From: an uncultured Acholeplasma sp. | Lineage (GTDB): Bacteria; Bacillota_I; Bacilli_A; Acholeplasmatales; Acholeplasmataceae | NCBI GenBank assembly: GCA_964648225.1 | Contig: CAZYKH010000001.1 | Coordinates: 135,959 to 199,958, forward strand | Length of the DNA stretch: 64,000 bases | Direction: 5' to 3' | In this document: in pieces, positions 350-47,329 of the stretch | Layout: each line of letters opens with the position of its first letter | Numbering within the stretch: position 1 is the stretch's first letter | Translations under genes and position numbers: made by a program | The notes under the pieces: generated by a model | What the model was told of the DNA's origin: nothing | Seen by the model: only the letters and a program-made list of their open reading frames with translations | Databases searched by the model: none

Positions 350-366
350 CAATATATACCTGCTTT

Positions 367-15500: not shown

Positions 15501-15513
15501 ATAGATCCTCTTT

Positions 15514-18511: not shown

Positions 18512-20095
18512 TTAATCTTCTCCTAGATATGTCGCTAGTGCGTCTTCGTAAATTGGTTTAATTCTTTCCATCTCTGTTCTTGCATCACCATTTTGGATTG
18601 CTAGGTTTGCTGCACCATACCATCCATTTGCTGCAAATTTAGAGATACCTAATGCACCAGTTAAATCTAATGTTGTCTTATCAAAAATACTTAAGTATGC
18701 ATCAATTGATGCTGAATCGTTAAATCTTTGAATTAATGTTGCATGGAATTCTGTCGATAATTCTTCGTCAGTTTTCCACATTTGAATTTCATTCCATACT
18801 TGGAACGCTAATGCTTCTTTTTCTGCACTTAATCCACTTGCTATTGTATAAACTGCAACACCACTAATCGGTGAAACATACTCACCGGTATATGTGTCGC
18901 TAACTGGATAAGGAACAAATCCAACATCAAAGTTTAATCCTGCCCATCTATTATCTGCGTTTAAGAACCAGAAACTACCTGGATGGAGCGCAACTTTACC
19001 AGCTATCCATAAAGCAGAACCTGCGTCATATTGTGGTGAACCTTCCCATAGACCTTTATTGGATAATCCATGTAAGAAGTTATATGTTTCTAATGCTGGT
19101 GCTTGATGGAATGCAACACGACCTGATCTTGCATTAATGAGTGAACCACCATTTAAAGGAATCATATTTTCTGCATAAACAGCTTTAATACCACCTAATA
19201 CACGGTAGTCATCACCCATACTTGGTAATGCTGCTTGAGCTGCATCAGCCCATTGTTCAAATTTAGACCAAGTCCATTCACCATTATTAAATAGTTCTGC
19301 TGGGTTATCTAAACCTAAGTCATTGATTAGTTCTACGTTAAAGTATAGACCTACATCCACTGTTGGTTTATTTACTGAAAACGCATAGAATTGACCTTTA
19401 AATGTACCTAGTTCCTTTGCTGGAGCTGTAATATTAGATCCTGTAGTACTTAAGTACTTATCTACTGCTGCGATTGCGTTTGCATTAGCAAGTTGAGCAG
19501 TCCAGTCAGATGTTGTCCAATAAATATCTGCTAATGGAGCACCTTCAACTGATGCTTGAATAATTGCATTTACGCGGTCTGGTCCCCAAGTTGCAGCCGT
19601 TGGATATGCTTTATATACAACTTTAACATTTAATCTTTCTTCAACTTCTCTTTGTTTATTTTGTCTAGCTTGTTGTTCTCTACCAGAGAATGCTGGATCA
19701 AATGGGTCAACTTCATATGGTGCACCGTGCATAATAACAATTTCAGTCGGAGGTGTTGTATGGACTATCTTCACTGTAATTGTTCTTTTTTTAGTGACGA
19801 CATTTCCATCTGAGCCTTCAACTGTATAAGTTAGTGTATAAGTACCAGCTGCACTCGTTACAACTGTACCTTCTACATTAATACGTGATGTAATATCACC
19901 ATCTACAGTATCGTTTGCTGTGACCCCTTCCATTGGATCAAATGCGTCCCCTACATTAATTGTTTTATCTGAAACTCCAACAATTGTTGCAGTGTTTTCT
20001 TCATTACCATTGCCATTATCATCGCCGCCGTTACCACAAGCTGCTAAAGTAAATAGCATCACAAACAGTAATAAGAATGAGAATATCTTTTTCAT
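18512..20095 (-). CDS. lipoprotein: Ig-like (DUF5011-type) domain fused to ABC sugar-binding protein
   Basis: Lipobox LAAC|G, an NG/D-rich linker, a DUF5011-like segment (GDITSRINVEGTVVTSAAGTYTLTYTV), then an SBP_bac_1-like domain. RBS AAAGGAG. Confidence 0.85.
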   Translation of the reverse strand: MKKIFSFLLLFVMLFTLAACGNGGDDNGNGNEENTATIVGVSDKTINVGDAFDPMEGVTANDTVDGDITSRINVEGTVVTSAAGTYTLTYTVEGSDGNVVTKKRTITVKIVHTTPPTEIVIMHGAPYEVDPFDPAFSGREQQARQNKQREVEERLNVKVVYKAYPTAATWGPDRVNAIIQASVEGAPLADIYWTTSDWTAQLANANAIAAVDKYLSTTGSNITAPAKELGTFKGQFYAFSVNKPTVDVGLYFNVELINDLGLDNPAELFNNGEWTWSKFEQWADAAQAALPSMGDDYRVLGGIKAVYAENMIPLNGGSLINARSGRVAFHQAPALETYNFLHGLSNKGLWEGSPQYDAGSALWIAGKVALHPGSFWFLNADNRWAGLNFDVGFVPYPVSDTYTGEYVSPISGVAVYTIASGLSAEKEALAFQVWNEIQMWKTDEELSTEFHATLIQRFNDSASIDAYLSIFDKTTLDLTGALGISKFAANGWYGAANLAIQNGDARTEMERIKPIYEDALATYLGED

Positions 20096-20287: not shown

Positions 20288-22756
20288 TTATTTTTTCTTC
20301 ATGAAGAATAATAGTGCTGAACCACCAAATGCAACGAGGGCTGCACCTAATGACATAAGAACTGCAGTTAATACGTTTACCCCACCGTTAGCCTTTAAAG
20401 CGTCTTCGATTGCTTTATCTACTTGTTCAGGTGTTAATCTGTTATCAACTTCATCTTTTGTTTCTTCAACTTTGTTATCAACTTCATCTACTTTATTTTC
20501 GACCTCAGTTACTTTTTCTTCAAGATCTTCTTGTGTAGGTTTAGCTTGTTTAACTACTACTGTGAAAGCAACTTCAGTTTCGTTACCAGCACGGTCAGCT
20601 GCACCAACGATAACTTGGTATGTACCTGGTAATAATTTACCATCAGCCATTGCCATATTACCATTATCTAATACATATAGACTTAATTGTGCTCTTGTAT
20701 CAAAGTTGTCAATTGCAACAACGTTTGCAAGAATTGCATTATCAACAGATGTAAATCTATCGGATTCAACTGTATATTGATTGTCAACAACTACTAATTG
20801 AGGCGCTGTTTTATCATCAATAACGAGTTCATAAGAAGTCTTTGTAACGATATCTGTTTCAAAATCTTCAGTACCTAGTACAAATGAAATTGGATGACCA
20901 AATGGTAAGTTTCTTAAACCAGCAGCATTTACTGAACCATGAACACCAACAACAAATTCACCTTCAGCAAGCACTAAGCCGCTTCTCCATGCATTAAATT
21001 GAGTTTCATCTTCTACAGCAACACCATCTTCAGTCATGTGATTCCAGTTATAACGGTCATACCATTCTTTTAATGTACCATCTGCAGCAACATATAAGAA
21101 TACTGAACCATAAGCAGATCCCACATTATTAACAGCTTCAGATTCTGTAAAGATTGCGAAGCGTCCATAATTTGTCACACTTACGTTAGTAACTGTATTC
21201 ACTACTGAAAGATCGATTGAATAATCTGTACCATCAATTGTTAATACTGTAGGTTCCCCAGCGATAAATACATTATAAGTAAATTCTAAATTAATTTGAT
21301 AAGTACCTGGTTTTGGATTATACATGTTAAAACCAGCAGGTGGTGTTACTTTGATTGTATTTGTTAAATCATTACCATAACCATCATCAGCTTTAATGTC
21401 ACCTAATAGGTCAACAAAGACACCCTCATCTGCAAAACGTTTTTTAACGTTTGTGAATTTAGGAGGTAAGACACCAACAGCAATTTCAACTTCAACTTCT
21501 GTTAATCCATTTTCTGGATGTTCAGCTGAATATAACGCAATATAACCATTACCAAATCCTGATGAATCGACAACAGTTAATGCAGCATCTGGAGTATATG
21601 TATCACTATCAGCATCGTAAACAAAATTAATTGTTTGTAATGGTGTAGGTACATGATCTTCATCAGCTAAGTTATAATCTGCAACATCAAATATTTCTAC
21701 TTTATAAGATAACTTTTCTGTTTGATTAACAATGAAACCATCTTCATCATACATTTTTACCCAAGTTACAGATATGTCATTTGGTAAATCAAATGAAGGT
21801 GCATTAAATTCAACAATCATTTGTGTTCCAGGTGTAGCGCCATCATCATCATGTGAACTAATTCCAGCAAATACAGGATCTGGGAAATTATACGGTCTAT
21901 TCATCTTAGGTGCTTCTTCTTCTAAGAATGATGGTACAAACATCTTAACAAAGTCTGTCGATGAGTATGCACCACGGTCATTTGTACCGAATGAGACTGT
22001 AGACCATCCTGCAGGAATAACTACATGATTTGGATTGTAATCTAATAATAAAGTTTGTTCTGCCTCAGGAACCGCATCTTCACCTGTTAACGCTGCTAAG
22101 TCAGCATTTACCCATTTTAGATATACAAGTGGTTCTAATACATATCCATCTGCATCTGTTTCATCTCTCATGATTCTTACATGAGTTAAACGTGTGTTTG
22201 GTGTATCTACAGCTGGATTTGCAGCTTCATCATATGCTGTGATTTCAGCTTCTGTAGCTAATCTCCAATCAGCATTTTCATAAACATCCGTACCATCATT
22301 GTGGATATAGTAAGTAAAGAAGTGGTCTTCGAACATCATGAGTTCGCCTTCTTCATTAAAATATGCATACATGCGATGTACTGATGTAGTAATATCTGTT
22401 CTTGCAGTATCTGTAGACATTTCAATATCATCTTCACCATCATTAATTGTCATAACAGCAAACGCATTCCATGATAGTGCCGGATAATCTGTTGGTGCAA
22501 TTAGACCATCTGCATCTGCATCAGTCCATAGGTGAGCAAATCTTACCCCGCCACGAACAAAGTGATATCTATGACCTAAAAACTCTAAGTCCCAATTTGA
22601 ATCCCCTACGAGTGTAAAAGGTGTACTGGGTCCATAAAGTGCACTTGGGTCATCATATGGATAGATGTCCACGAGGTCACCATCTTCTGCAAAAGTTGGC
22701 ATCATGACAACTAACGCAGCAACGAACAACAAGAATAATGTTGTAATTTTTTTCAT
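20288..22756 (-). CDS. 822-aa acidic surface protein of unknown function (signal peptide, Ig-like DUF5011-type segments, coiled coil, C-terminal TM anchor)
   Basis: Signal MKKITTLFLLFVAALVVMMPTFA. Coiled coil EEKVTEVENKVDEVDNKVEETKDEVDN. C-terminal TM LTAVLMSLGAALVAFGGSALLFF followed by MKKK. No catalytic family recognised. Confidence 0.8.
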   Translation of the reverse strand: MKKITTLFLLFVAALVVMMPTFAEDGDLVDIYPYDDPSALYGPSTPFTLVGDSNWDLEFLGHRYHFVRGGVRFAHLWTDADADGLIAPTDYPALSWNAFAVMTINDGEDDIEMSTDTARTDITTSVHRMYAYFNEEGELMMFEDHFFTYYIHNDGTDVYENADWRLATEAEITAYDEAANPAVDTPNTRLTHVRIMRDETDADGYVLEPLVYLKWVNADLAALTGEDAVPEAEQTLLLDYNPNHVVIPAGWSTVSFGTNDRGAYSSTDFVKMFVPSFLEEEAPKMNRPYNFPDPVFAGISSHDDDGATPGTQMIVEFNAPSFDLPNDISVTWVKMYDEDGFIVNQTEKLSYKVEIFDVADYNLADEDHVPTPLQTINFVYDADSDTYTPDAALTVVDSSGFGNGYIALYSAEHPENGLTEVEVEIAVGVLPPKFTNVKKRFADEGVFVDLLGDIKADDGYGNDLTNTIKVTPPAGFNMYNPKPGTYQINLEFTYNVFIAGEPTVLTIDGTDYSIDLSVVNTVTNVSVTNYGRFAIFTESEAVNNVGSAYGSVFLYVAADGTLKEWYDRYNWNHMTEDGVAVEDETQFNAWRSGLVLAEGEFVVGVHGSVNAAGLRNLPFGHPISFVLGTEDFETDIVTKTSYELVIDDKTAPQLVVVDNQYTVESDRFTSVDNAILANVVAIDNFDTRAQLSLYVLDNGNMAMADGKLLPGTYQVIVGAADRAGNETEVAFTVVVKQAKPTQEDLEEKVTEVENKVDEVDNKVEETKDEVDNRLTPEQVDKAIEDALKANGGVNVLTAVLMSLGAALVAFGGSALLFFMKKK

Positions 22757-22803
22757 TTTTTAACTCCCTTTTCCTTTATTTTGTTTTCTAAACATGTGGC
22801 TTC

Positions 22804-22832
22804 ATTATATGCTCAACTGAAAGCGCTGTCAA
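22804..22832 (-). promoter_or_regulatory. consensus sigma-A-type promoter for the 822-aa gene
   Basis: Minus strand TTGACA (22832..22827), 17-nt spacer, TATAAT (22809..22804). Both hexamers match consensus perfectly. About 45 nt upstream of the ATG. Confidence 0.7.
22818..22831. promoter_or_regulatory. cre box (14/14 to consensus) overlapping the -35 element and spacer
   Basis: Plus strand TGAAAGCGCTGTCA matches TGWAANCGNTNWCA at all 14 positions. Confidence 0.55.
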
Positions 22833-22851
22833 TTTATTTTTACCAATAAGC

Positions 22852-22865
22852 CGATAACGCTTGCA
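22852..22865. promoter_or_regulatory. second cre-like box upstream of the same promoter
   Basis: Minus strand TGCAAGCGTTATCG, 12/14 to the cre consensus. Confidence 0.3.
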
Positions 22866-22905
22866 TATTTTTACATTTTGGAAAATATTTTCAGTTTTTT
22901 CAATT

Positions 22906-25900
22906 TTATCTAGTTGTACCTGGTACGAATACATTGAATGTACGTGTACTTGTTTGACCATCTAATATAACTGTAATTGTATAACTTACTGTGGTATTAT
23001 GAGTGGGCATTGATATAACACGTCCCGCATGATCAATAATTTCAGGATTACTTGAAACCATCGAAATTTGAGCATTTGCATAGTTTAATGCAACCTCATA
23101 TTCGACGTCTGCCATCTTTTGAAATTTAGGCTCTAAACCTGAAACCAATAAGGCATTTGGACAATGTTTCCCAGAAAAATGTTGATGGAACTTAATGTGT
23201 TCTCTTGGAAGGTTATATTTAACCAGTGTTTGAGATGCCCATTTAGCTGTTCTTTGCCAAATTCTATAAAGATCGTCACCCATACCAACGTTCATTTCAA
23301 TTGCAATAGCGTTTCTATTACCACCGCCTAACAGTTCCGGTCTAACGATGCCTTGGATTATCACAGGTCCACCTACAGGTGCACTGCCATCACCAGCATG
23401 CCATGCAACTTCTCCTTCAGGGATGTGTTGATACATTTCATAATCATCTATTGTGTAATGCCAAGATACTTGCGCACCATTATTAGCTGCCTGACCTAAT
23501 AAATAGTTAGCATGTGATAATGCACTAGACGATGGATCCGTATTTGCAGTATCATGCACAGTTATCCAGTGTACATTTTTGTCATTATACGTTATCGCCG
23601 GTTCTGGAATGTCAGATAATGCATATCCTGGTCTAACACGCCCGCCCTTGTATTGGTCTGGAATCATTTTTGTTGTATCAATTATAATTTCATCAAAATA
23701 GAAGTTTGAGACTGATTCATACCCAACAACTCGGTATGATGGACCTGTTCCTGTTTCCCAGAAATCATGTTTTTTAAGGTATGCTTGCTGATTTAATGTG
23801 AGTAGATCTAATAAGTTGTTTTCATCTAATGATTCGTAGAAAGTTACATAATACGTTTCATAGACTTCGCTATCATCTGCAAGTCTTACAGTGATAATGA
23901 CTTGACCCGCTGTATGCGATGTAACCACACCATTTTCATCTACAGTAGCGACCAAATCATTGGATGATTCAAAAGTTACCGCTTTATCTTGTATTGTAAT
24001 TGGGAAAGGTGTCGCTTCAATCGTTAGACTATCACCTGCAACAAGTGATTGTGTATCGATTGATGGTGTTAAATTAATACCCGGATCGGTAGTGACTTTA
24101 AAGTCAACTGTGGTTTCTGCATCAGATGCTCTTGATGATGCAGAAATTGTAATTGCTGCTTCACCACTTTGTTTTGGAACAAGTTTACCAGTACCTTCAA
24201 CCATGAGTATGTCTGCATCTGTAGTTCTAAATCTAAAACGAGCATTTTCTAGTTCATATGGTAAATATTCATACTCAATAAATAATTCTTCACCAACCCA
24301 AAGTGTATCTAAATCTGTGGTAACAAAAATGAATAATACAATTTCCGGATCAAAGTTTGCTTCAGATACAATATCTGCTTTTTCTTCATAATGACCTATA
24401 AGCATTCGTTCTGGAATATTTTCAAAATCATTTAAATCAAGTGTTTGGCTACCCCAAAAATTGAGCGTGAAATCAATATTAGAATTTAAGTTTGCAATTG
24501 CTCCTTTATCACTATAATTTACAACCGAATTAAAACGAACAAATGCAGATATTTCTGTCTCAGCTAGCATCACTTTAAATGCAGTTTCAATGTCTTCAAT
24601 ATCATTCCAAGCAATTTGTAGTGAAGTTTCTTCACTATATGTAGTACCTAAAACTTCTACAGCTACTTTGGTATTTTTAATGATATTGTTTTTAATATCT
24701 AATTTGCCATCTAGTATTTCTCTAACCAATATTGCATGACCATCAACATTAGAAATAGTGTTTTTATCCACATATAAAGTTGCTGCTAATGCAACATCTA
24801 TTGCAGCCAATACGGAAGCATCTAAATTACTAAATTCATTATGAACTACCGTTAGGTTTTCAGCACTTTCAAGTGCTTTGATAAACCCTTCATCACTAAA
24901 TTTGAATCCATCTATTGTTATACCCGGTGCATCAATTGTAAGTTGTTTGGTAATAACGACATTTGGTGTTGCAGCAATAAGCGTTACATCTGACTTGTCG
25001 AGTGTAATCGATGTATCTAATGTCATGTCAAAGACATGAATTTTAGTACCATCATTTGCTTTTTCTAATGCCGCTTCTAGTGTATTAAACAAGCTTGCGC
25101 CATAAATGAATTCTAAGTCATTAATTACAACTTTATCACCATCTTGTTTTGTTACATCAACTGCCAATTCATTATAAATTGTCATTTCATGATTTGCAAA
25201 AACTGCTTCATCAGCAATAGAGGTTGCAGTAATAACAACTACACCACTACCAACTGGTGTTACAACACCATCTTGGCTAACTTGAGCAACTGCTTCATCA
25301 CTTGATGACCAAATCACTTGAGGAACAGATGTTTCAGGACCTAAGATGGTTGTAAGTTTGACATTGCTGCCTACATTTAACTTCGTTTCACCTTCAATTA
25401 AGATTGTAGTAGCAACATCATAAACTATTAAGTCAATTGATGCTTTAACTGAACTATCTGATTTAAGTGTCATCGTAATCGTAAAGTCTCCTGGCGCAAT
25501 TGCAGTAATAATTCCACCTTCATCTACTGTTGCAACCAAGTCATTACTTGAACTAAATGTAACTTCCCCATCAGCTTCAAATTGTAATTGTAAGGTTTGG
25601 CCCTGCCATAAATAAGCACTTGGTTCTCCAATGGATAATTCAACAGTTGGCTCAGTCACCAAAACATCTACACTTTTAAAGACTTCTTCATCTGTTTTGG
25701 AAGTCACCTTAATCGTTGTATTACCAGCTTTTAAAGCAGTAATTAGGCCCGCATTAGATACATCAATAATTGATGGATCTGTAACATTTATCTCGTAACC
25801 AAGTGGGTCATTCGTTGTAATTTCTAGTTGAAATGTATCATCGACTTCTAAACTAATTGGGCCACTTGAAATACTTAATGTAATATCCTTTGTCGTATCA

Positions 25901-25974
25901 TCTGTACCTTCTGCACAAGCTACTAAAGTAACAAACGCTACAACAATACTTACCATAGTAAATATTTTCTTCAC
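22906..25974 (-). CDS. 1022-aa lipoprotein: Big_2 Ig-like repeats + parallel beta-helix-like region + N-acetylmuramoyl-L-alanine amidase (Amidase_2) domain
   Basis: GTG start with GGAGGAGG RBS and lipobox LVAC. Big_2-like segments (GLITALKAGNTTIKVTS, GIITAIAPGDFTITMT, GVVTPVGSGVVVITAT, GVVTSHTAGQVIITV). Amidase_2 region around aa 795-945 (nt ~23140-23592) has WITVHDTA, AWHAGDG, NAIAIEM and KHCP, so the Zn ligands His/His/Cys are present. Confidence 0.85.
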   Translation of the reverse strand: MKKIFTMVSIVVAFVTLVACAEGTDDTTKDITLSISSGPISLEVDDTFQLEITTNDPLGYEINVTDPSIIDVSNAGLITALKAGNTTIKVTSKTDEEVFKSVDVLVTEPTVELSIGEPSAYLWQGQTLQLQFEADGEVTFSSSNDLVATVDEGGIITAIAPGDFTITMTLKSDSSVKASIDLIVYDVATTILIEGETKLNVGSNVKLTTILGPETSVPQVIWSSSDEAVAQVSQDGVVTPVGSGVVVITATSIADEAVFANHEMTIYNELAVDVTKQDGDKVVINDLEFIYGASLFNTLEAALEKANDGTKIHVFDMTLDTSITLDKSDVTLIAATPNVVITKQLTIDAPGITIDGFKFSDEGFIKALESAENLTVVHNEFSNLDASVLAAIDVALAATLYVDKNTISNVDGHAILVREILDGKLDIKNNIIKNTKVAVEVLGTTYSEETSLQIAWNDIEDIETAFKVMLAETEISAFVRFNSVVNYSDKGAIANLNSNIDFTLNFWGSQTLDLNDFENIPERMLIGHYEEKADIVSEANFDPEIVLFIFVTTDLDTLWVGEELFIEYEYLPYELENARFRFRTTDADILMVEGTGKLVPKQSGEAAITISASSRASDAETTVDFKVTTDPGINLTPSIDTQSLVAGDSLTIEATPFPITIQDKAVTFESSNDLVATVDENGVVTSHTAGQVIITVRLADDSEVYETYYVTFYESLDENNLLDLLTLNQQAYLKKHDFWETGTGPSYRVVGYESVSNFYFDEIIIDTTKMIPDQYKGGRVRPGYALSDIPEPAITYNDKNVHWITVHDTANTDPSSSALSHANYLLGQAANNGAQVSWHYTIDDYEMYQHIPEGEVAWHAGDGSAPVGGPVIIQGIVRPELLGGGNRNAIAIEMNVGMGDDLYRIWQRTAKWASQTLVKYNLPREHIKFHQHFSGKHCPNALLVSGLEPKFQKMADVEYEVALNYANAQISMVSSNPEIIDHAGRVISMPTHNTTVSYTITVILDGQTSTRTFNVFVPGTTR

Positions 25975-27017
25975 TACTTTTCCTCCTCCATTTCATAAAT
26001 TATGTTCCCTATCTCATTTCTTAATCCAATGATTTGATTTAAATTTCTCTTAGGGTGGACCGCATTCGAAACTAAAACAAATCCCAATTTATTTTTCTTA
26101 TCGATAAACATATGACAACCTGTAAAACCTGTATGACCAATCGTTTGATCAAAATCACGGTACTTGCCAGCAAAACTATCATCATATGGTTTTAGATAAC
26201 CCAAGGTTCTTGTCACTTTGTAGCCCAAGGAATCATCAGTAATTACTGGTTCAAATAACATATCTGTTAATTGTTTGTTTAAAACAAATTCATCTTTTAA
26301 AATACTTTGAATGAATAATCCAATATCATAGGCTGTAGAAAACAAGCCGGCATGACCAGATAACCCACCTAGTAAATAAGATTTTTCATCATGGACTTGC
26401 CCTTTTAATAATCCTTTTGAAAAATCATCATCATGATATTCTGTAGGGGCAGCACGATTGACATCCGGTTTATAATTAGAATCTTTCATACTTAGTGGTT
26501 CAAAAACATACTTTATGGCTGCTTGATCAATGGGCATACCAAAAAGTTTTTCTGTAATTTTGCCCAGTAAGATAAACCCTACATCCGAATAAACTACTTT
26601 AGTGTGTGGTTCATATGTAAGTTCCATATTATAAATAATATCCATCACTGTACTACCATCTTTAACTGTACGTATTTTAGGTACATCTGCAGGTAGGCCT
26701 GATTGATGTGAAAGTAAATCTTTGATTGTTGTATTAGGGTGTTTATAACGTTCTAATAAAGTCTGTATTTTCGTTTCCAAACTTAATTGATTAAGCTCAA
26801 TTAATTTCATAATGAGCGTCGTTGTCGATATAACTTTTGTTAAAGAAGCTACATCATAAACTTCATCGCCTTTTAATACTTCCTTTGTTGGGTATATTTG
26901 TTTATACCCAACAAAGTCTGTTGTGATTTTATCTTTAGTTACGTAAGCATAGTGTGCGCCAGGAAATTTATTTTGTTCAATTGCACTTTGTAAAAACGCT
27001 TTTAATCTATTCATCAT
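25974..27017 (-). CDS. serine hydrolase of the beta-lactamase/AmiE (YbbE) family, cytoplasmic
   Basis: 347 aa with no signal peptide. Motifs SxxK (ASLTK), YSD and HTG (IGHTGFTG). Confidence 0.8.
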   Translation of the reverse strand: MMNRLKAFLQSAIEQNKFPGAHYAYVTKDKITTDFVGYKQIYPTKEVLKGDEVYDVASLTKVISTTTLIMKLIELNQLSLETKIQTLLERYKHPNTTIKDLLSHQSGLPADVPKIRTVKDGSTVMDIIYNMELTYEPHTKVVYSDVGFILLGKITEKLFGMPIDQAAIKYVFEPLSMKDSNYKPDVNRAAPTEYHDDDFSKGLLKGQVHDEKSYLLGGLSGHAGLFSTAYDIGLFIQSILKDEFVLNKQLTDMLFEPVITDDSLGYKVTRTLGYLKPYDDSFAGKYRDFDQTIGHTGFTGCHMFIDKKNKLGFVLVSNAVHPKRNLNQIIGLRNEIGNIIYEMEEEK

Positions 27018-30000
27018 GGTCTTTTCTTCATAATAAATACAATTGACGATACTACAAATATAATACCTATGACAACCGATGATATGATGCCTATGATTTG
27101 TAAGTTATTATTGCCTTCGGGTGTTTCTTCATCCGGTATTTCTTCACCTGGTGTTTCCTCATCTGGATTTCCATCAAACATATGTGTTTCCCAAGTATGT
27201 TCTACATCTTCTGTCCAATAATGTGTACTTAAACGATTAAGTGCTTTTTGCACTAAATCATTGTTTAAGTTTAATGATTTATATGAGAATATTGAACTAC
27301 CAATAATCTCTTCATATTGAGACATATATCTTAATTGTTCTAAGAATTCGGATTCATGCGGCCAATTATTAGAGTTTTCGGCATATCGATAAAAACCTTG
27401 ACCAATGATAAGATCTACATTTGTATCTTTAACCGTATCAACCCACCAATCCACTAAATCTGCAAAGCGTGCAGTTGAATGGTTAAATGGCCAATAAAGT
27501 TGCGGAATAATATAGTGTAACCAACCTTCTTTAACCCATTTTCTAGAATCTGCAAATTGTGCTGAATAGCTTGATAATCCCATAGAATTGGACCCTAATG
27601 GATCTTGAGATTTATTACGCCAAATACCAAATGGTGAAATACCAAATTTAACATGCATATCATTAGCTTCATTATGTGCTTCAACTAAATTAAAGATATC
27701 ACGAACAAGTGTATTAACATTTTCACGTCGCCAATCTTCACGTGATAACCCATTTGGATTAAAGTTTAAGAATGCATAATCATCTTCAGTATCTAATGTA
27801 CCGGAATAACTATAGAAGTAATCATCAAAATGAATACCATCAATTGCATAGTTTTCCATAATTTCTGCAACTATATTATATAAATATTGGCGTACTGCTG
27901 GCATACCAGGGTTTAAGATGAGTGCTCCATTTGTATCTTGAATGACATAGCTTGGGTTTTGTTTAGCGAAGTTAGAATCATGAAGTAATGATAATTGTTC
28001 TTCTTTGGAGCCCCCAGTATTAGATACTCGATAAGGGTTCATCCAAGCATGTACTTCAATACCTCGCTTATGTGCTTCATCTACTACAAATTCTAATACA
28101 TCCCAACCTACACCTACACCTTCTTCACCAGATAAATATCTAGAAAACGGGGCATATGCTGATGGATAAAATGCATCATTCATTGGTCTTGTTTGGAAAA
28201 ATAAGGTATTAAATTTCAATGTTTTCATACGTTCTAAAGCATTAATGATACTCGCTTTATATGATGCTTCATCTTCATATTGTGCTATATCAATGTTCGC
28301 TACAGTCGCTAGCCAAACAGCACGTATTTCTTTCGTTTTTTCAGTATATGAAGTAGGTAATTCTACTGGTGTATCCGTTTGATAATATGTAACTTTTTGT
28401 CCATTTCTGACAACAAATTGATTATCTTCAGTCAGCGGAATACGTACACGTACACGCACATCTAAAACATCTGATTCGATACCATTTTCAGCAATCGATT
28501 TATATTCTACGCGGAAGTTTGCTGATTCTGTGAATGTAAAACTTTCAGTGTAGATTTTCCATTCAGACCAATCAATACCATTATGGATACGGTAACTAAT
28601 TGTATCTGTTTCATTTTCCGCTTCTAAAATAACTTCAACCGGCTCAATAAAGTAGCCATCTTCTTCTGTACCATTTAATATAACTGTAACCTCACCCGGT
28701 CCTTCAACAATATTAAATTGATAACTAAATATTTTTTCTTGTGGTCCATTGCGATATTCTAATGTATAGTGTCCTAGTTGTTCATATAATATAGGTTCAA
28801 CATATTGTTGCCATGCACCACCATTTACACGATATCTTGGTTCTGGTGCATTTGGATCAAACTGGATATCTACTTCTAGCCACTCGAAATTAGGGGCAAC
28901 ACCATCTCCTGCAATTTGAATAGTTGGATCTGTGTAATTTGAAACTATTTTTAAGTTTTGTTGTATAGCATTTGATTCAACACCACCAGCATCAATTGTT
29001 TTAGCAAATACTGCATAATTTCCAGTATCTGTTAAGGTGATCGGACCTTCATAAAGTTCCCAAGGCCCAATACTTCCGTGGTTAATACGGACCCAAATTT
29101 CATGATCCTGTGCTGTAATTTCAATGTGTGCACCAGATTCATAATTATCCCCTATTTTATTACCAACGATTGTAATTTCAGGGACAACAAGGTTTTCTAT
29201 TTCTGTATAAAATGTTGTAACGAGTGTTTTCGATGCAACATCATTCGTATCAATCGCTTTATAATAAAGTTCGTGTCTCCCATTTGAAATAACTTCAATA
29301 GGTTCAGTATAAGTTACCCAAGTTTCTTGATCAAAACTATATAAAATATCATGATCACTTGTAAGCGTAATTGTTACTTGTGACATAAAGCGTTGGCCAA
29401 TGAAATCACCATCAAAGCTAATAGTTGGTGCTTCAACACTACTTTCTGGTAAATCACTTAAATGATTTGTGTAAGATAATGCTCTAACACCATATGTGTA
29501 ATTTGTAGATGTATCATTAGAATCCCAAGTGATTGTGGATTGTCCATCGTTATAAATAACATCTACAATTTGACTTTGTTCATATGCTAGTGCATCATCT
29601 GTTTTATAAATATAATAAAACTTTGCATCACTGTGACCATCAAATGTCAGTTCACCAGTTGCTGCATTATGTACAACGTTTGTTACCGTTGGTACTTTAA
29701 CTGGTGTCATACTTTTTAATGGTGGTAAGACTGCGATATGATTAAAATGATTATTGCGTGCATTGGTTAAATTTGCTTGTGATGGTCTATTTAAATTTTG
29801 ACCAGCATCGCGAATCATATTATATGAATAAATTGAAAAGCCTTGAACATTTTCATAAGTACTTAATATATCTAATTGATTACTAAATTCATTAGGATTA
29901 TTACGCCAAGAATAAACATTAGATTGGGTACCAGCATCTGCTAGATAAAGACCAACACCTGAATATAGGTTTACATCTAAGTATCTAACAACTTTTTCCC

Positions 30001-31024
30001 ACCAACCCATAACATCTTCAAGACCAGCTTGAGGATGAGTGATTGCCCAATAACTTTGAGGTAGCATATAATCTAGCCATCCTTCTTTGATCCAATGTAG
30101 CGTATCGGCAAATAAATAAGATTGATAATGTTCTTGTCCACTTGTTTTAGAACCATTGGTGATTGGCATACCATTAGAATCATAAGTCACTTCACCGTTA
30201 CCGTTTCTATAAATACCGGTTGGTGAAATACCAAATTGTACATAACGATTATTATCGATGTTAAATTGTTTGATTGCTTCATGGGTTGCTTCTATAAATA
30301 AATTTATTTGTTCACGGCGCCAATTACTCTTGCCTGCAACCGTATTTGGTTGTCCTAAAGGATCTGCTAAAAATAGTGTTTGATCTGGGTCATTTAAAAT
30401 ACTACCATTACCCATTTCCATATAAAAGTAATCATCAAAATGGATAGCATCTACATTATAGTTTTCAATAATCTCTAGAATTGTATTGACCACATGTTCT
30501 CTAACCACTGGTAAGGCAGGGTTTAATATGTGTGCTGTATTTTCTTTATTAGACAAAATATTTGCGGGATTACTTTGCGGATTTTCAGTTGGCATCGTTC
30601 CTCTTTGATAAGTGGTTGAAACACGATAGGGATTTAACCAAGCATGAAATTCAATACCACGTTTATGTGCTTCATCAATGAAGTATGCCATCGGATCAAA
30701 TACATCAAAATCAACACTTGAAAACCAGCTTGCTACTGGGTTAATTTCAGATTTATATAATGCGTTATTATGTGTTCTCATATGTACGATTGCAACATTT
30801 AAATTATTAATTTCCATATTATTTAATATGGCATTGACTTCATTTTTAAATGCTTGCTCGGTGGAGTATGCCTGCATACTACCAATAAAATGTGTGATCC
30901 ATGTTGCTCTAAACTCACCTTGTTCTTCTGCAACTTCAACTTCCGGATAAGCATAAACTTTTTGATTTGGAACAAGTGTGAGTGCTAAAATACTTATCAG
31001 TAAAAACAAAACTACTTTTTTCAT
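27014..31024 (-). CDS. 1336-aa surface enzyme with two GHL10 (DUF187, YngK/YddW-DigH-like) glycosidase domains, an Fn3-like domain and Ig-like repeats between them, and a C-terminal TM anchor
   Basis: Signal peptide. GHL10 signatures occur twice (HAWLNPYRVS + AIHFDDYFY; HAWMNPYRVS + GIHFDDYFY). P/E/T-rich linker, then TM IIGIISSVVIGIIFVVSSIVFI followed by MKKRP. Confidence 0.8.
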   Translation of the reverse strand: MKKVVLFLLISILALTLVPNQKVYAYPEVEVAEEQGEFRATWITHFIGSMQAYSTEQAFKNEVNAILNNMEINNLNVAIVHMRTHNNALYKSEINPVASWFSSVDFDVFDPMAYFIDEAHKRGIEFHAWLNPYRVSTTYQRGTMPTENPQSNPANILSNKENTAHILNPALPVVREHVVNTILEIIENYNVDAIHFDDYFYMEMGNGSILNDPDQTLFLADPLGQPNTVAGKSNWRREQINLFIEATHEAIKQFNIDNNRYVQFGISPTGIYRNGNGEVTYDSNGMPITNGSKTSGQEHYQSYLFADTLHWIKEGWLDYMLPQSYWAITHPQAGLEDVMGWWEKVVRYLDVNLYSGVGLYLADAGTQSNVYSWRNNPNEFSNQLDILSTYENVQGFSIYSYNMIRDAGQNLNRPSQANLTNARNNHFNHIAVLPPLKSMTPVKVPTVTNVVHNAATGELTFDGHSDAKFYYIYKTDDALAYEQSQIVDVIYNDGQSTITWDSNDTSTNYTYGVRALSYTNHLSDLPESSVEAPTISFDGDFIGQRFMSQVTITLTSDHDILYSFDQETWVTYTEPIEVISNGRHELYYKAIDTNDVASKTLVTTFYTEIENLVVPEITIVGNKIGDNYESGAHIEITAQDHEIWVRINHGSIGPWELYEGPITLTDTGNYAVFAKTIDAGGVESNAIQQNLKIVSNYTDPTIQIAGDGVAPNFEWLEVDIQFDPNAPEPRYRVNGGAWQQYVEPILYEQLGHYTLEYRNGPQEKIFSYQFNIVEGPGEVTVILNGTEEDGYFIEPVEVILEAENETDTISYRIHNGIDWSEWKIYTESFTFTESANFRVEYKSIAENGIESDVLDVRVRVRIPLTEDNQFVVRNGQKVTYYQTDTPVELPTSYTEKTKEIRAVWLATVANIDIAQYEDEASYKASIINALERMKTLKFNTLFFQTRPMNDAFYPSAYAPFSRYLSGEEGVGVGWDVLEFVVDEAHKRGIEVHAWMNPYRVSNTGGSKEEQLSLLHDSNFAKQNPSYVIQDTNGALILNPGMPAVRQYLYNIVAEIMENYAIDGIHFDDYFYSYSGTLDTEDDYAFLNFNPNGLSREDWRRENVNTLVRDIFNLVEAHNEANDMHVKFGISPFGIWRNKSQDPLGSNSMGLSSYSAQFADSRKWVKEGWLHYIIPQLYWPFNHSTARFADLVDWWVDTVKDTNVDLIIGQGFYRYAENSNNWPHESEFLEQLRYMSQYEEIIGSSIFSYKSLNLNNDLVQKALNRLSTHYWTEDVEHTWETHMFDGNPDEETPGEEIPDEETPEGNNNLQIIGIISSVVIGIIFVVSSIVFIMKKRP
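28445..29428 (-). repeat. four tandem ~75-85-aa Ig-like repeats (chitobiase/hexosaminidase C-terminal-like) inside the 1336-aa ORF
   Basis: aa ~533-860. Each unit has the pattern (I/V)x(I/L)..., an aromatic core and a Y(K/R)xI(D/A) ending, for example ...HELYYKAIDTNDVAS, ...NYAVFAKTIDAGGVES, ...HYTLEYRNGPQEK, ...NFRVEYKSIAENGIES. Boundaries approximate. Confidence 0.5.
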
Positions 31025-32238
31025 TTGTTGTCCTTTCTATTATTGAGTAATTTTTTAACAAGGTCCATACCTTGTTTTTGCTTTTCAGGTTCAATAAATG
31101 TCTTATAAGTGAAAAACACATTACCTTGGATAGTATCAAATTGATTCGCATATTTTATTTGATTTACAATTTCATATGGGTTTGAGTAACCACCTTTTTC
31201 ACCTAAGCGATATGCACCATGGCCAATATATAAATCAACTTGAGTACCATCGCATACATTTGCCCACCATTTGGTTAAATCACCAAATGGTGCTAATTCA
31301 TGTTCAAAATCCCAATAAATTTGTGGAATAATATAATCTATGTAACCTTCTTTGACCCATAGGTAACTATCGGCATATTGATTATCAAACGATTGACTAC
31401 ATTTTGGATTAACGTTGGCTCCAAGCACATCTTTGGATTTTGTTTTCCATATACCAAATGGTGATACTCCAAAGCGTAGTTTAGGATGTTTTTCTTTAAG
31501 TGCTTCGTTTAAGTTTTTAATAACATTGGTAATTTGTGATCTTCTAAAATCACCAAGTGTTTGTGACTTATCATCTCTTCTTTCAAAGTCTTCTAAGTCA
31601 TTATCATCATCACTTAAACCAGCATATGGATAAAAGTAATCATCAAAATGAATACCATCCACATCATAGTTATCTGCTATTTCTAACATCGATTCAATAA
31701 TAAAGTCTTGAACTTGTTTTTTTGCAGGATTTAAAATGAGCTGTCTATTTTTATCAGTAACAACTAAGTCCGGATATTTTTTAGCGAAATTTAGGTCATC
31801 TAAAGTTTCTAAATATTCCATTTTAGACATATCAATTTTCATGCTCACACGATACGGATTACACCAAGCATGCACTTCAATATTTCTTTTTTTAGCTTCT
31901 TTAATGACAAAGTCTAACACATCAAATTTTGGTGCAACACCTTCTTTACCAGTTAAATATTTTGAATAGGGATTGAACTTAGATTTGTAAAAAGCATCAT
32001 TAGTTGTTCGCACTTGAAAAAATATTGCTGTCATATGATAAGCTTTTGCTGTATCTAACATTTGAATAACTTTTTGTTGATAATTAGGATCTTGTGTTGT
32101 TGGTAGATCTATGTTAAGGACATTGGATACCCAAAAAGCTCTAAATGGTTTTTCTTGATAGTTTTCGGGGATAATAATTTGTTCTTCTGTTTCGTAATAA
32201 TTTAGTGGCTTATTCGTACCAAAATATGTTAACTTCAT
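31021..32238 (-). CDS. cytoplasmic GHL10 (DUF187) family glycosidase-like protein
   Basis: 405 aa with no signal peptide. Same signatures as the other two domains: HAWCNPYRVS, GIHFDDYFY, GVSPFGIW. Confidence 0.8.
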   Translation of the reverse strand: MKLTYFGTNKPLNYYETEEQIIIPENYQEKPFRAFWVSNVLNIDLPTTQDPNYQQKVIQMLDTAKAYHMTAIFFQVRTTNDAFYKSKFNPYSKYLTGKEGVAPKFDVLDFVIKEAKKRNIEVHAWCNPYRVSMKIDMSKMEYLETLDDLNFAKKYPDLVVTDKNRQLILNPAKKQVQDFIIESMLEIADNYDVDGIHFDDYFYPYAGLSDDDNDLEDFERRDDKSQTLGDFRRSQITNVIKNLNEALKEKHPKLRFGVSPFGIWKTKSKDVLGANVNPKCSQSFDNQYADSYLWVKEGYIDYIIPQIYWDFEHELAPFGDLTKWWANVCDGTQVDLYIGHGAYRLGEKGGYSNPYEIVNQIKYANQFDTIQGNVFFTYKTFIEPEKQKQGMDLVKKLLNNRKDNK

Positions 32239-33533
32239 TTGTTATACACTCCATAGTATGTTAAATATTCTTTGTGCTTATCATATAATGCATTAAATGC
32301 ATCCTTGGTTGATTTAAATGATTTAGATAAGGGGTGAATTTGAAAAGCTAACAATGCCTTATTTAAATCTTTTTCATAAATTGCATCACATAGTAATTCT
32401 TCATATGCTTTTAAGTGTTGAACAATACCACGCACATGTAAAGGTAGTTCACCAATATGAACGGGTATTGGTCCATCTTTAGTCATGCGAGCGGTAATTT
32501 CAATAGACGTTTCATCGGGTATACCAACGATATGACCGTGGTTTACTGTATGAATGACATGGTAGTTTTTCTTGTTATTTTTAATAGAGTCCATAATTTC
32601 AACTGCGGTTTGAGCAAAACTATGATCTAAGAGCTTTTGCATGTCTTTAAAAACATTTAAAGTATTTTCATCAGCATATTTTTTATATAACAAGTCATTA
32701 AATTCAATCATTTGATTGGTTAGTATTTTTTTATTTTTTTGGTTATCTAAAAATGTTTTTGTAACGACTTCATCTTGATAATAATACTTTAAATTAGGAT
32801 GTGGATAACATCCTAAACGTTGTAGATTTTCTAAAGCCATCGGATGATTTTTTGGTAAAAATCCACCGGATAATAACTTTGGTAATTTATCTTTTCCTTT
32901 ATGATAAACTTTAAGCATAAAGGATAGTTCGCTTAAACCAGCATAATATGGGACAAGTTCATTAGGATGTGCTTTTAGTTTATCTATAACTTCCTTAGTT
33001 ATTTGATTTGGCTCATTTGATAGACCAATATAACGGTCAAACTCACTAAAACGACATACCGCTTCACTAATAATACCGGTTGGGTTTGTTGCATTAATCA
33101 CCCATGCTTTTGGGGCTAGTTCTTTAATGTCTTCGATCATTTCATAAATTACCGGAACAGTTCTTAAGGCATTAAATAACCCACCAATGCCTATCGATTC
33201 ATGACCAAGCATATTAAATTCAGCCGGTATGGTTTCGTCATAAAAACGTGCTTGCATGTGACCAACTCTAATTTGAATAAGAACAAAATCAGCATCCAAT
33301 AGACCATGTCTTTGGTTTAAGCTAGATGTAACTGAAATTGGTATGTTGTGATGTTTTAACATTCTTTGAATGAAATTGGTCATAATGTCTAAGCGTTCTT
33401 CACTTGTTTTTAAATCAATTAAAACTACTTCTGTAAATTTTAAATCATCATAATGTTTGATGATGTATTCAAATACTTCTGCTGTATTCGTTGATGCGCC
33501 ACCTAATATGGCCAGTTTTAGTTTTGTTTGCAT
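32235..33533 (-). CDS. GH4-like NAD-dependent glycosidase homologue with non-canonical metal-site residues
   Basis: 432 aa. By eye it aligns along its length to E. coli ChbF-type GH4 (KLAILGGASTNTAE, DADFVLIQIRVG, WVINATNPTGIISEA). It has IGLSNEP where GH4 has G(V/L)CN(I/V)P, and AGLSE where GH4 has GLNH. Confidence 0.75.
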   Translation of the reverse strand: MQTKLKLAILGGASTNTAEVFEYIIKHYDDLKFTEVVLIDLKTSEERLDIMTNFIQRMLKHHNIPISVTSSLNQRHGLLDADFVLIQIRVGHMQARFYDETIPAEFNMLGHESIGIGGLFNALRTVPVIYEMIEDIKELAPKAWVINATNPTGIISEAVCRFSEFDRYIGLSNEPNQITKEVIDKLKAHPNELVPYYAGLSELSFMLKVYHKGKDKLPKLLSGGFLPKNHPMALENLQRLGCYPHPNLKYYYQDEVVTKTFLDNQKNKKILTNQMIEFNDLLYKKYADENTLNVFKDMQKLLDHSFAQTAVEIMDSIKNNKKNYHVIHTVNHGHIVGIPDETSIEITARMTKDGPIPVHIGELPLHVRGIVQHLKAYEELLCDAIYEKDLNKALLAFQIHPLSKSFKSTKDAFNALYDKHKEYLTYYGVYNK

Positions 33534-33549
33534 TATATCACTTTCTTTT

Positions 33550-34698
33550 CTAGGTAAAGTATGAAACTGTACCTAACACTACATGTTTTTTAGCGCCGGT
33601 TGCGCTTGGTAAATTGGCTGTTTGTTGAAATAATGTTTGATTACCCAATACAATGAAGGCTAACGCTTCTTTATAATCACTTGATACCCCCACATCGTCA
33701 CTAGATAATACTTTAATATCTGGTAAAGATTTTTGTATAAAATTCATTAAAAATTGATTATGTACACCGCCACCAGAAATAATTAATTCATCGACTTCGT
33801 GTTTGTTTAAGATAAATTGTTTAATATTCGATATCATCGTTGATGCTGTTGCAACCGTTAAAGTATGAATGATATCTTCTGGTGCATGATTTTTGTATTT
33901 TGTCATTAAAGTTTGTGTGTATGCCCCACCAAATTGTTCTCTACCACAAGATTTTGGTGGCATTTGGTGAACAAATGGGTGCTGCATAATTTCATCATAT
34001 AACGGTAAGATGAGTTGACCTTTTTTTGCAATTTGACCACCATCATCATAAGGTTTGTTGTATAACTTTTCCATAGCATAATTAATCATCATATTGCCTG
34101 GTCCTGTATCAAATGCATAGACGTCATGTTCATTTTTCGTTTTTGGTAAATACGTAATATTAGAAATACCACCAATATTTTGTGCAATGCGTGATTTATC
34201 GCTACTTGACAATAATAGATAATCTACATAAGGTACAAGTGGTGCACCTTGTCCGCCTTGAATCATATCAGCAATTCTAAAATCAGAAACTACTGTTGTT
34301 TCTGTCAGTCCTGCAATGACTGAGCCACTACCTAATTGTAAAGTAGATGGTAATCTTGTATCTTCTATTTCGCTTTGATGGTAAACAGTTTGTCCGTGCG
34401 ATGCAATAAAGTTTAAGCTCGATGGGCTTAATTTTAATTCTTTACACAAACTGATAACACAACTTGCATAGAGCCGACCCAACTCAAAATGAAGACTCGA
34501 TACGTCTTTAACTGTTAGTTGGTCTGTCACTGCAAGTTTTACCTTTTCAAGTAACATTGGTGGATAATCAAATGTTTTACCTGCAATCATTTCTATTTTA
34601 GTTGTTAAACCAGTACCTGAGATGGTTGCTATCACTACATCAATGCCATCAAGCGATGTACCACTCATAATACCGCATGCTAACTTAGACTGATTCAT
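33550..34698 (-). CDS. anmK: anhydro-N-acetylmuramic acid kinase
   Basis: GIMSGTSLDGIDV N-terminal motif and AnmK-like length. Start moved from 34731 to ATG 34698, which has AAGAGG 8 nt upstream; the putative -10 element overlaps 34731. Confidence 0.9.
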   Translation of the reverse strand: MNQSKLACGIMSGTSLDGIDVVIATISGTGLTTKIEMIAGKTFDYPPMLLEKVKLAVTDQLTVKDVSSLHFELGRLYASCVISLCKELKLSPSSLNFIASHGQTVYHQSEIEDTRLPSTLQLGSGSVIAGLTETTVVSDFRIADMIQGGQGAPLVPYVDYLLLSSSDKSRIAQNIGGISNITYLPKTKNEHDVYAFDTGPGNMMINYAMEKLYNKPYDDGGQIAKKGQLILPLYDEIMQHPFVHQMPPKSCGREQFGGAYTQTLMTKYKNHAPEDIIHTLTVATASTMISNIKQFILNKHEVDELIISGGGVHNQFLMNFIQKSLPDIKVLSSDDVGVSSDYKEALAFIVLGNQTLFQQTANLPSATGAKKHVVLGTVSYFT

Positions 34699-34731
34699 AA
34701 TCAAAACCTCTTTAATTTGTGATATTTTCAT

Positions 34732-42677: not shown

Positions 42678-42763
42678 TGGTGCTCGGGAAGGGATTTGAA
42701 CCCTCACAGGATTTCTCCCACTACCACCTCAAGGTAGCGTGTATACCGTTTCACCACCCGAGC
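42678..42763 (-). tRNA. tRNA-Leu (anticodon GAG), class II with long variable arm, CCA encoded
   Basis: Minus strand GCTCGGGTGGTGAAACGGTATACACGCTACCTTGAGGTGGTAGTGGGAGAAATCCTGTGAGGGTTCAAATCCCTTCCCGAGCACCA. The 7-bp acceptor pairs, the anticodon stem is CTACC/GGTAG with loop TTGAGGT, and the T-loop is GGTTCAAATCC. Confidence 0.9.
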
Positions 42764-47313: not shown

Positions 47314-47329
47314 AAATTATCAATTCTCC

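Follow-up and report, generated by a model that had tools for sequence, protein, structure and literature searches.

Related systems and the Acholeplasma locus

The genes analyzed here form a 38-kb block (positions 367 to 38746) in a 64-kb window of DNA from an uncultured Acholeplasma sp.; the window is the whole stretch under study, and the data cover it together with its 10-kb flanks. A close described counterpart of the block is the N-acetylmuramic acid (MurNAc) recycling operon of Bacillus subtilis, murQ-murR-murP-amiE-nagZ-namZ/ybbC. Common to both are clustered genes for MurQ, a MurR/RpiR regulator, a beta-lactamase-fold protein of the AmiE type, a GH3 NagZ, and NamZ. B. subtilis, however, is walled, recycles its own wall, and relies on the phosphotransferase system (PTS) protein MurP for uptake, whereas the window encodes ATP-binding cassette (ABC) importers and kinases. 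B. subtilis exports its NagZ, AmiE, and NamZ, but the window versions have no signal peptides, and the B. subtilis operon is without GHL10, AnmK, GH4, DUF5696, and the 822-amino-acid (aa) protein of the window.

Other parts of the block recall systems from more distant bacteria. The GHL10 family, the logic of amidase action followed by glycan cleavage, AnmK, MurQ, and NagZ are shared with Escherichia coli DigH (YddW) and the AmpG-NagZ-AmpD-AnmK-MurQ route. Unlike the window system, that of DigH is periplasmic, associated with the divisome, directed at the cell's own septum, and coupled to the AmpG permease. Cwp19 of Clostridioides difficile has the same catalytic domain (E 1e-92) and motifs as a 1336-aa protein of the window, but Cwp19 is an autolysin with one catalytic domain and three CWB2 modules that bind polysaccharide II (PSII), whereas the window protein combines two such domains with a membrane helix at its C-terminus, has no wall-binding module, and belongs to a presumably wall-less host. 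Scavenging of peptidoglycan sugars from other bacteria is known from Tannerella forsythia (MurT/MurK/MurQ and AmgK/MurU); Tannerella, however, is walled and needs MurNAc for its own wall, whereas the route in the window is catabolic only.

The block is probably a peptidoglycan-foraging locus of a wall-less Acholeplasma. The pathway would be of a known kind; new are the wall-less host, exo-enzymes that are tethered to the membrane instead of bound to a wall, and the combination of ABC import and intracellular finishing with lineage-specific parts. No published study of the locus was found in the literature on Acholeplasma with MurQ or N-acetylmuramic acid, and its genes are already annotated in public Acholeplasma genomes.

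Gene content of the locus

The genes are co-directional from 38746 down to 367, and most overlap or lie a few bases apart. Starting at the upstream end, they are:

37178..38746, minus strand: NAGPA-family phosphodiester glycosidase, 522 aa, exported (Pfam NAGPA 3.8e-31)
35771..37174, minus strand: GlcD-like oxidase linked to flavin adenine dinucleotide (FAD) (TIGR00387 1.6e-107, below cutoff)
34844..35689, minus strand: MurR/RpiR-family regulator (NCBIfam matches 6.6e-46, below equivalog cutoffs)
33550..34731, minus strand: AnmK, anhydro-N-acetylmuramic acid kinase (NCBIfam NF007142 537 bits vs cutoff 435; Pfam AnmK 4.1e-99)
32235..33533, minus strand: GH4 NAD-dependent glycosidase, cytoplasmic (Pfam Glyco_hydro_4 and Glyco_hydro_4C)
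31021..32238, minus strand: single-domain GHL10 enzyme, 405 aa, cytoplasmic, no signal peptide (Pfam GHL10 1.9e-64)
27014..31024, minus strand: 1336-aa surface enzyme with signal peptide, two GHL10 domains (about 36-400 and 892-1265), OmpL47-type beta-barrel domains between them, Pro/Glu-rich linker, transmembrane (TM) helix, and end KKRP
27017..27112, minus strand: C-terminal anchor of the 1336-aa protein, residues about 1305-1336 (hydropathy; LPXTG_anchor 12.0 bits)
25974..27017, minus strand: beta-lactamase-fold protein, 347 aa, without signal peptide (Pfam Beta-lactamase 1.4e-45; best NCBIfam match PBP4B 1.5e-36, below cutoff)
22906..25974, minus strand: lipoprotein, 1022 aa, lipobox LVAC, with four Big_2 domains, beta-helix, and Amidase_2 (Pfam Big_2 4.3e-30, Amidase_2 4.8e-17)
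20288..22756, minus strand: 822-aa surface protein with signal peptide, N-terminal domain (N-domain, 26-308), Ig-like beta-sandwiches (about 311-736), coiled coil (742-788), TM helix, and end KKK
20291..20380, minus strand: C-terminal anchor of the 822-aa protein, residues about 793-822
18512..20095, minus strand: solute-binding lipoprotein, 527 aa, lipobox LAAC, Ig-like domain (Pfam Bact_surface_Ig-like; SBP_bac_1 on orthologues)
13685..18429, minus strand: N-anchored solute-binding protein, 971 aa (Pfam SBP_bac_8, SBP_bac_1), and two ABC permeases (BPD_transp_1)
11864..13675, minus strand: exported NHL/TPR protein, 603 aa, with C-terminal TM helix and basic tail (anchor about 11867-11953; weak NHL and TPR matches; hydropathy)
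6050..11864, minus strand: Yip1-domain membrane protein, N-anchored DUF5696 protein (862 aa), two ABC permeases, and DUF624 membrane protein (Pfam Yip1, DUF5696 4.2e-158, DUF624)
4924-6057, minus strand: NamZ (NamZ_N 273 bits, cutoff 26.9; NamZ_C 146 bits, cutoff 25)
3360-4991, minus strand: GH3 NagZ (NCBIfam 209.5 bits vs cutoff 207; Pfam Glyco_hydro_3)
2483-3373, minus strand: BadF-type sugar kinase (NCBIfam scan)
1560-2477, minus strand: MurQ (NF003915 398 bits vs cutoff 168; TIGR00274 373 bits vs 302)
1094-1558, minus strand: GNAT, a gene of the cytoplasmic end of the pathway
367-1089, minus strand: NagB (NCBIfam 251.6 bits vs cutoff 236.9)

Judged by these profile matches, the genes point specifically to peptidoglycan. 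MurQ, AnmK, NagB, and NagZ exceeded their NCBIfam cutoffs (MurQ and AnmK with full-length matches above the curated values), and NamZ, which has both of its domains, GH3, Amidase_2, GHL10, and GH4 exceeded those of Pfam. Catabolism of foreign peptidoglycan is the natural reading of such a gene set.

Several further assignments are more tentative. The Amidase_2 domain of the 1022-aa lipoprotein, a predicted surface N-acetylmuramoyl-L-alanine amidase, resembles the amidases of prophage endolysins (XlyA in the PDB, 3hmb, 4.6e-18; also PlyL). The 347-aa protein is probably a PBP4B/AmiE-like MurNAc-peptide amidase or peptidase of the cytoplasm. Its context makes the FAD-linked oxidase a candidate D-lactate dehydrogenase, which would act on the D-lactate that MurQ releases. 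For DUF5696, no solved structural relative was found. The NAGPA gene heads the locus in four Acholeplasma genomes (the window, A. laidlawii, A. hippikon, and A. oculi). It is speculation that the enzyme frees the MurNAc C6 of wall polymers linked through GlcNAc-1-phosphate (GlcNAc, N-acetylglucosamine); a free C6 is needed for formation of the anhydro bond.

Export signals were found on the amidase, the double GHL10 enzyme, the 822-aa, NAGPA, DUF5696, and 603-aa proteins, and the binding proteins, and are lacking on the 405-aa GHL10 enzyme, GH4, the 347-aa protein, NagZ, and NamZ. This division suggests coarse cleavage outside the cell, import of oligomers, and finishing inside.

Identity of the host

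The window consists of an almost unbroken run of minus-strand genes with a GC content of 32-36%. In a scan of one genome per species, RlmN was 88% identical to its counterparts in A. laidlawii 8195 and A. granularum ATCC 19168, 83% identical to that of A. oculi, and 90-93% identical to those of two uncultured Acholeplasma metagenome-assembled genomes. Identity to Mariniplasma and further family members was about 65-68%, and the matches were solely to records of Acholeplasma, Acholeplasmataceae, or 'Tenericutes'. PolC (52874-57388) was 87% identical to PolC of A. laidlawii. The housekeeping flank (PolC, pheST with its T-box, rlmN, rsgA, rpe, thiN, rpmB, the DAK2 gene, and tRNA-Leu) is collinear with that of A. 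laidlawii, A. granularum, and A. oculi. On these identities and this collinearity, the window is assigned to a distinct species of Acholeplasma sensu stricto. The genetic code is the standard one, with TGA as a stop, as in the genus: TGA ends 5 of the 41 genes and is never found in frame, and Trp is encoded by TGG in all 178 cases. Two features of the flank are relevant here:

46360..48346, minus strand: rlmN and rsgA, 16 nucleotides (nt) apart, prpC-prkC not between them
51835-52051, minus strand: T-box leader upstream of pheS, ordinary (Rfam 103.9 bits)

The original prediction, made from the letters of the window, had described the host as an Acholeplasma-like Mollicute, citing low GC content, PolC, TGA as a stop, N/G/D-rich lipoprotein linkers, and the missing prpC-prkC pair between rlmN and rsgA, and had proposed to place the host by its window proteins. 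All of these features were recovered, and comparison of RlmN and PolC, together with the synteny of the flank, sharpens the placement to the genus Acholeplasma itself. In 78 of 78 related loci that have both genes, rlmN and rsgA are likewise adjacent (12-119 nt apart). Hence, the absence of a PASTA kinase at this site is a family trait, in a set of 78 loci that holds no walled control.

A. laidlawii, A. hippikon, and Mariniplasma anaerobium, all of which carry the locus, are described as wall-less, a description taken from a paper on Peloplasma. A survey of 2650 Bacilli genomes predicts that mur genes, racemases, ligases, flippases, and sortases were lost at or before the common ancestor of Acholeplasmatales and Izemoplasmatales, and that the Acholeplasmataceae, with complete loss, are peptidoglycan-deficient (PMC10868615). 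A wall-less host would have nothing of its own to recycle, and the locus is best read as serving to forage on the peptidoglycan of other bacteria.

Conservation of the locus

Three complete genomes, from A. laidlawii 8195, A. hippikon, and M. anaerobium, hold the locus genes in the order of the window and with full-length open reading frames (ORFs). The locus of A. laidlawii 8195 is without the Amidase_2 lipoprotein and the FAD oxidase, and that of A. hippikon is without the beta-lactamase-fold gene. In M. anaerobium, gene order matches that of the window exactly from GH4 to DUF5696, with RlmN only about 67% identical. Full-length ORFs and a gene order kept across genera this far apart argue for function.

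A. granularum ATCC 19168 differs at the syntenic site (locus L009, 16416-19162, vs window 367-40902). Here the DUF2130 gene is followed directly by GNAT and NagB, and the block of about 38 kb is absent. The variable stretch starts shortly past the conserved tRNA-Leu(GAG).

The double GHL10 enzyme

The 1336-aa protein matched Pfam GHL10 in two stretches (2.8e-102, 342 bits vs 27.9). Compared with the structure of Cwp19 (PDB 5oq2), its C-terminal domain gave an E-value of 1.1e-92 and its N-terminal domain one of 6.6e-58. Both belong to the Cwp19-type GHL10 TIM barrels with conserved putative active-site residues: the motifs W-x-NPYR, HFDDYFY, and PQxYW are kept and hold the residues proposed for the active site. 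In Cwp19, these are Trp127, Arg132, Asp195-Asp196-Tyr197, Gln295, Tyr297, and Gly328 (PMC5765458). Cwp19 itself, which three CWB2 modules attach to the clostridial wall, acts as a lytic transglycosylase whose muropeptide products contain 1,6-anhydroMurNAc (PMC6016235), and the E. coli GHL10 protein DigH degrades glycan strands already free of peptides (PMC12288456). By homology, the double GHL10 protein is predicted to be a lytic transglycosylase of the Cwp19 type, with GlcNAc-(1,6-anhydro)MurNAc oligomers as likely products. The gene for AnmK lies three genes upstream, with the GH4 and 405-aa GHL10 genes between; its proximity would be explained by the 1,6-anhydroMurNAc products of a Cwp19-type enzyme, although this link is circumstantial.

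The C-terminus is a hydrophobic helix in 102 of 120 homologues of the 1336-aa protein, and in most of these a basic tail follows. We also noted a group of homologues (P0102-P0111), mostly of about 1085 aa and on short ENA contigs, in which 9 of 10 have a hydrophobic tail without basic residues (e.g. ...SLLGLCCLLILLF). These GHL10 proteins have odd N-termini, and their tails recall eukaryotic glycosylphosphatidylinositol (GPI) signals; they may be of protist origin.

A lineage-restricted surface protein

No Pfam or NCBIfam family was found for the 822-aa protein. Its homologues number about 150, none of them named, and those with a label belong to Acholeplasma, Paracholeplasma, Mariniplasma, Acholeplasmataceae, Izemoplasmatales, or 'Tenericutes'. 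An identical protein is encoded on an ENA metagenome scaffold (ERZ23499309, SHAF22-1), in Logan assemblies, and on an NCBI contig. The AlphaFold (AF2) model (predicted local distance difference test, pLDDT, 83.4) consists of the N-domain, Ig-like sandwiches, coiled coil, and membrane helix; modelled alone, the N-domain reached a pLDDT of 84.6 and a predicted TM-score (pTM) of 0.84. Foldseek found no fold match for the N-domain in PDB or BFVD (best E 0.17 and 0.12), and with the whole chain it returned generic cadherin- or S-layer-like Ig arrays alone (TM-scores <0.13). A match to tektin in the PDB sequence search was rejected as spurious (E 0.89).

A profile of the N-domain retrieved 55 representatives among 1.84 billion proteins. 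In full-length representatives, the domain is almost always N-terminal in a protein of about 800 aa. Its invariant acidic and basic residues (E143, R165, E171, R194, E208, D260, R261, D303, and D305) would fit a binding site and a catalytic site alike.

Membrane anchors of the surface proteins

Window ORFs of at least 100 aa were scanned with a hydropathy script for a hydrophobic 17-mer (Kyte-Doolittle mean at least 1.9) with no more than 12 residues after it, two or more of them K/R. Five ORFs passed, i.e. two polytopic ABC permeases and the 603-, 822-, and 1336-aa proteins. Each of the latter three has a hydrophobic N-terminal signal sequence and no further membrane segments. Their C-terminal ends read ...FGYIFLAILALPTAFIVYKQIRKRKDSIK (603 aa, 11864-13675), ...VLTAVLMSLGAALVAFGGSALLFFMKKK (822 aa, 20288-22756), and ...IIGIISSVVIGIIFVVSSIVFIMKKRP (1336 aa, 27014-31024), so that the script agrees with a direct reading of the helix and basic tail that the original prediction had reported for the same three proteins. 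This topology of signal and tail anchor was found in 3 of the 45 window ORFs of at least 150 aa, compared with none of the 797 ORFs that 80 housekeeping loci from related genomes contain (Fisher p = 1.4e-4). A signal peptide and a C-terminal TM helix are also the topology of Amp in phytoplasmas, which belong to the same family.

The remaining exported proteins had been described as lipoproteins or as anchored at the N-terminus, which agrees with the lipoboxes LVAC (1022 aa), LAAC (527 aa), and LVGC (210 aa), each with N/G/D-rich linkers, and with the N-terminal anchors of the 971-aa and 862-aa proteins. The claim that LPXTG and wall-binding modules are missing from the anchored proteins also held. 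A regular expression detected no LPXTG-like motif in the last 60 residues of any real window ORF. With TIGR01167 (LPXTG_anchor, cutoff 15.9), the 1336-aa tail scored 12.0 bits and the 822-aa tail 8.5 bits, and only the helix part was aligned; the window tails thus fall outside the sortase-dependent LPXTG surface proteins. An NCBIfam scan of the window tails for known C-terminal sorting domains returned sub-threshold matches to LPXTG_anchor and MYXO-CTERM alone. No LysM, SH3b, SLH, CW_binding (choline-binding), CWB2, PG_binding, or SPOR domain was detected on the exported proteins scanned (Pfam, E <= 0.01 or 1e-4), which sets these proteins apart from wall-bound hydrolases with at least one wall-binding module.

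A homology search with the 603-aa protein listed 120 matches, all in Acholeplasma, Acholeplasmataceae, or 'Tenericutes'; walled relatives were not among the matches listed. The M. anaerobium orthologue (L086, 19121-20593) has the same anchor. This tail-anchored NHL/TPR protein is about 603 aa long in the window and in A. laidlawii. Most relatives have a form of about 490 aa, and the forms from Acholeplasma contain an insertion of ~110 residues.

A PETG-Cys signal in sister genera

Helix and basic tail of the window proteins correspond to the last two parts of a sortase signal. Whereas the window proteins have no LPXTG and score below the TIGR01167 cutoff, orthologues in sister genera carry PETG with an invariant Cys. 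Outside the genus Acholeplasma, the motif [I/V/P]P(E/K/D)TGC[G/F] directly precedes the helix in 70 of 120 homologues of the 822-aa protein and in many homologues of the 1336-aa protein (carriers are proteins P0146-P0240 and many of P0011-P0090). Tails from M. anaerobium (AP024412.1, L086, 1568-5575 and 10001-12466) read '...AIPETGCGSAINGTSAIFITFSLVLGASAIFFFRRRR' and '...DPPKTGCFSAISTSS...'. The tail of the 821-aa M. anaerobium protein, with its IPETG-C signal, scored 19.3 bits on LPXTG_anchor, above the cutoff of 15.9, and showed a weaker likeness to MYXO-CTERM. In the window 822-aa protein, the nearly invariant G792 occupies the position of the PETGC signal of the orthologues, and intermediate tails such as 'PEDETGTS' are without the Cys. 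Because of the matching position, G792, and the intermediates lacking Cys, the plain anchors of the window look like decayed forms of an LPXTG-like signal.

The original prediction had taken the absence of LPXTG as a sign of a wall-less host. The absence in the window is real, but since orthologues in wall-less Mariniplasma carry a signal that passes the LPXTG_anchor cutoff, it is not by itself a marker of wall-lessness, and the argument is weaker than had been assumed. The PETG-Cys motif may be a C-terminal signal for sorting or lipidation, either orphan or of a new type, in a family that is described as wall-less and predicted to be without sortases. No more PETGC-tailed proteins were found outside the locus in 85 loci, a result of little weight as these loci are housekeeping neighbourhoods.

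Proposed foraging route and alternative explanations

The analysis shows what the genes encode, which topology signals their products carry, to which genus the host belongs, and how the locus is conserved. On this basis we propose a route in which we infer the order of substrates and the roles of the 822-aa, 603-aa, DUF5696, and NAGPA proteins. Surface enzymes would attack foreign murein while tethered to the plasma membrane, the sole envelope layer available. The XlyA-type lipoprotein amidase would remove stem peptides, and the tail-anchored double GHL10 enzyme, related to Cwp19 and DigH, would cut the glycan strands. The 822-aa protein, with its new N-domain on a stalk of Ig-like domains and coiled coil, and the NAGPA protein probably bind or uncover the polymer. 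Two ABC importers would take up the fragments via one lipoprotein and one N-anchored binding protein. In the cytoplasm, GHL10, GH4, NagZ, and NamZ would release monosaccharides, and the AmiE/PBP4B-like protein may take off residual peptide. AnmK and the BadF-type kinase would generate MurNAc-6-P and GlcNAc-6-P, and MurQ would convert the former into GlcNAc-6-P and D-lactate. NagB, together with a deacetylase encoded elsewhere, would then feed glycolysis, the FAD oxidase would oxidize D-lactate, and the MurR-type repressor would control the gene set.

Several points weigh against this reading. NagA is not encoded in the window. No stem-peptide peptidases or endopeptidases (CHAP, NlpC/P60, and LytM) were seen in the locus, so the breakdown of a cross-linked sacculus may hinge on the amidase alone or require other organisms. 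The block seems dispensable for the genus Acholeplasma, since A. granularum is without it at the syntenic site. We infer the absence of a wall in this genome from genus membership, the occurrence of the locus in taxa described as wall-less, and the family survey; moreover, some environmental 'Tenericutes' outside the family retain mraY and murG (PMC7301438).

That the enzymes stand on long surface stalks and are not secreted would also suit contact-dependent predation, in which the tethered amidase and transglycosylases lyse living neighbours and the locus eats the released wall. Likewise, amidases of the prophage-endolysin type (XlyA, PlyL) are able to lyse Gram-positive cells from outside, and Cwp19 causes autolysis of C. 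difficile. We nevertheless consider predation unlikely, as the window contains no killing factors, toxins, endopeptidases, or adhesion systems of known prey specificity, characterized GHL10 enzymes act on denuded or late-stage murein, and an outer membrane shields Gram-negative prey. Furthermore, the assimilation of bacterial biomass by Acholeplasma was observed with heat-killed cells: in 13C-RNA stable-isotope probing of pig slurry, Acholeplasma was the dominant labelled population 2 h after addition of heat-killed 13C E. coli (PMC4628116). Scavenging is therefore rated far above predation. Of the original prediction, the feeding of a wall-less host on the walls of other bacteria is supported by locus content, genus, and family survey, whereas its predatory variant has no support in the window.

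It is quite improbable that the target is another amino-sugar polymer (chitin, host glycans, poly-N-acetylglucosamine, or glycans of the cell itself) and that the peptidoglycan-type genes are incidental. GHL10 structurally resembles PgaB, Acholeplasma is known to handle unusual GlcNAc polymers, and neither DUF5696, GH4, and NAGPA nor the two binding proteins have an assigned substrate; however, MurQ, AnmK, NamZ, and Amidase_2 have no known non-murein substrate and lie collinear in one co-directional array with overlaps or very short gaps. A reading confined to chitin was rejected because these four are present.

Recovery of turnover products from a thin or transient peptidoglycan made by the host itself is very hard to reconcile with the data. 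Such self-recycling would account for the overlap with the B. subtilis murQ-murR-murP-amiE-nagZ-namZ operon and the Gram-negative AnmK/MurQ route, and some lineages of the wider order are predicted to be thin-walled. Against it stand the placement of the host in Acholeplasma sensu stricto, the synteny of the locus in organisms described as wall-less, the predicted loss of mur genes in the family, and the conserved site itself, which a PASTA kinase occupies in 0 of 78 relatives. Moreover, NagB and a D-lactate-type oxidase form the end of the route, which makes it catabolic, and no salvage genes of the MurU/AmgK type are present in the window.

Finally, although the block is absent at the A. granularum site and the LPXTG-like motif has decayed in the genus Acholeplasma, a functionless, decaying relic of a walled ancestor is scarcely credible and was rejected, because ORFs of up to 1336 aa are intact and in the same order across genera with 67% RlmN identity, and active-site motifs are kept.

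Implications of the proposed peptidoglycan foraging

Apart from transporters, the slurry study proposed no mechanism for the assimilation that it saw (PMC4628116). The foraging locus would provide a gene-level mechanism for Acholeplasma as the fastest assimilator of dead biomass in that setting. It would recast free-living Mollicutes as consumers of murein, which is among the largest pools of bacterial necromass. The locus also suggests how wall-degrading enzymes may be re-housed upon loss of the wall, with attachment of the CWB2 or LPXTG type giving way to lipid and helix anchors. Two puzzles are flagged, namely the 822-aa N-domain, which has no fold match and is present in 4 of the 4 fully read loci, and the conservation of an LPXTG-Cys signal in cells without a wall. 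More tentatively, and with rather low confidence, free-living Acholeplasmataceae/Izemoplasmatales might be dedicated peptidoglycan grazers with a lineage-specific surface machine, comprising the 822-aa family and a PETG-Cys signal that would point to new C-terminal processing or lipid anchoring. A. laidlawii is culturable and carries the locus, which makes these proposals directly testable.

Genes flanking the locus

Upstream of the locus, a 6-phosphogluconate dehydrogenase-like gene lies between tRNA-Leu(GAG) and the DUF2130 gene (window 40896-42299, 42678-42763); A. laidlawii, A. granularum, and A. oculi have no counterpart there. Past NagB (L087, 10741-12961, adjoining window position 1) follow a 452-aa protein without a Pfam family (its start is the partial ORF at window 1-366, minus strand), a PIG-L-family deacetylase, and then rhamnose catabolic genes. 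The PIG-L-family deacetylase, which lies beyond the window, may replace the missing NagA.

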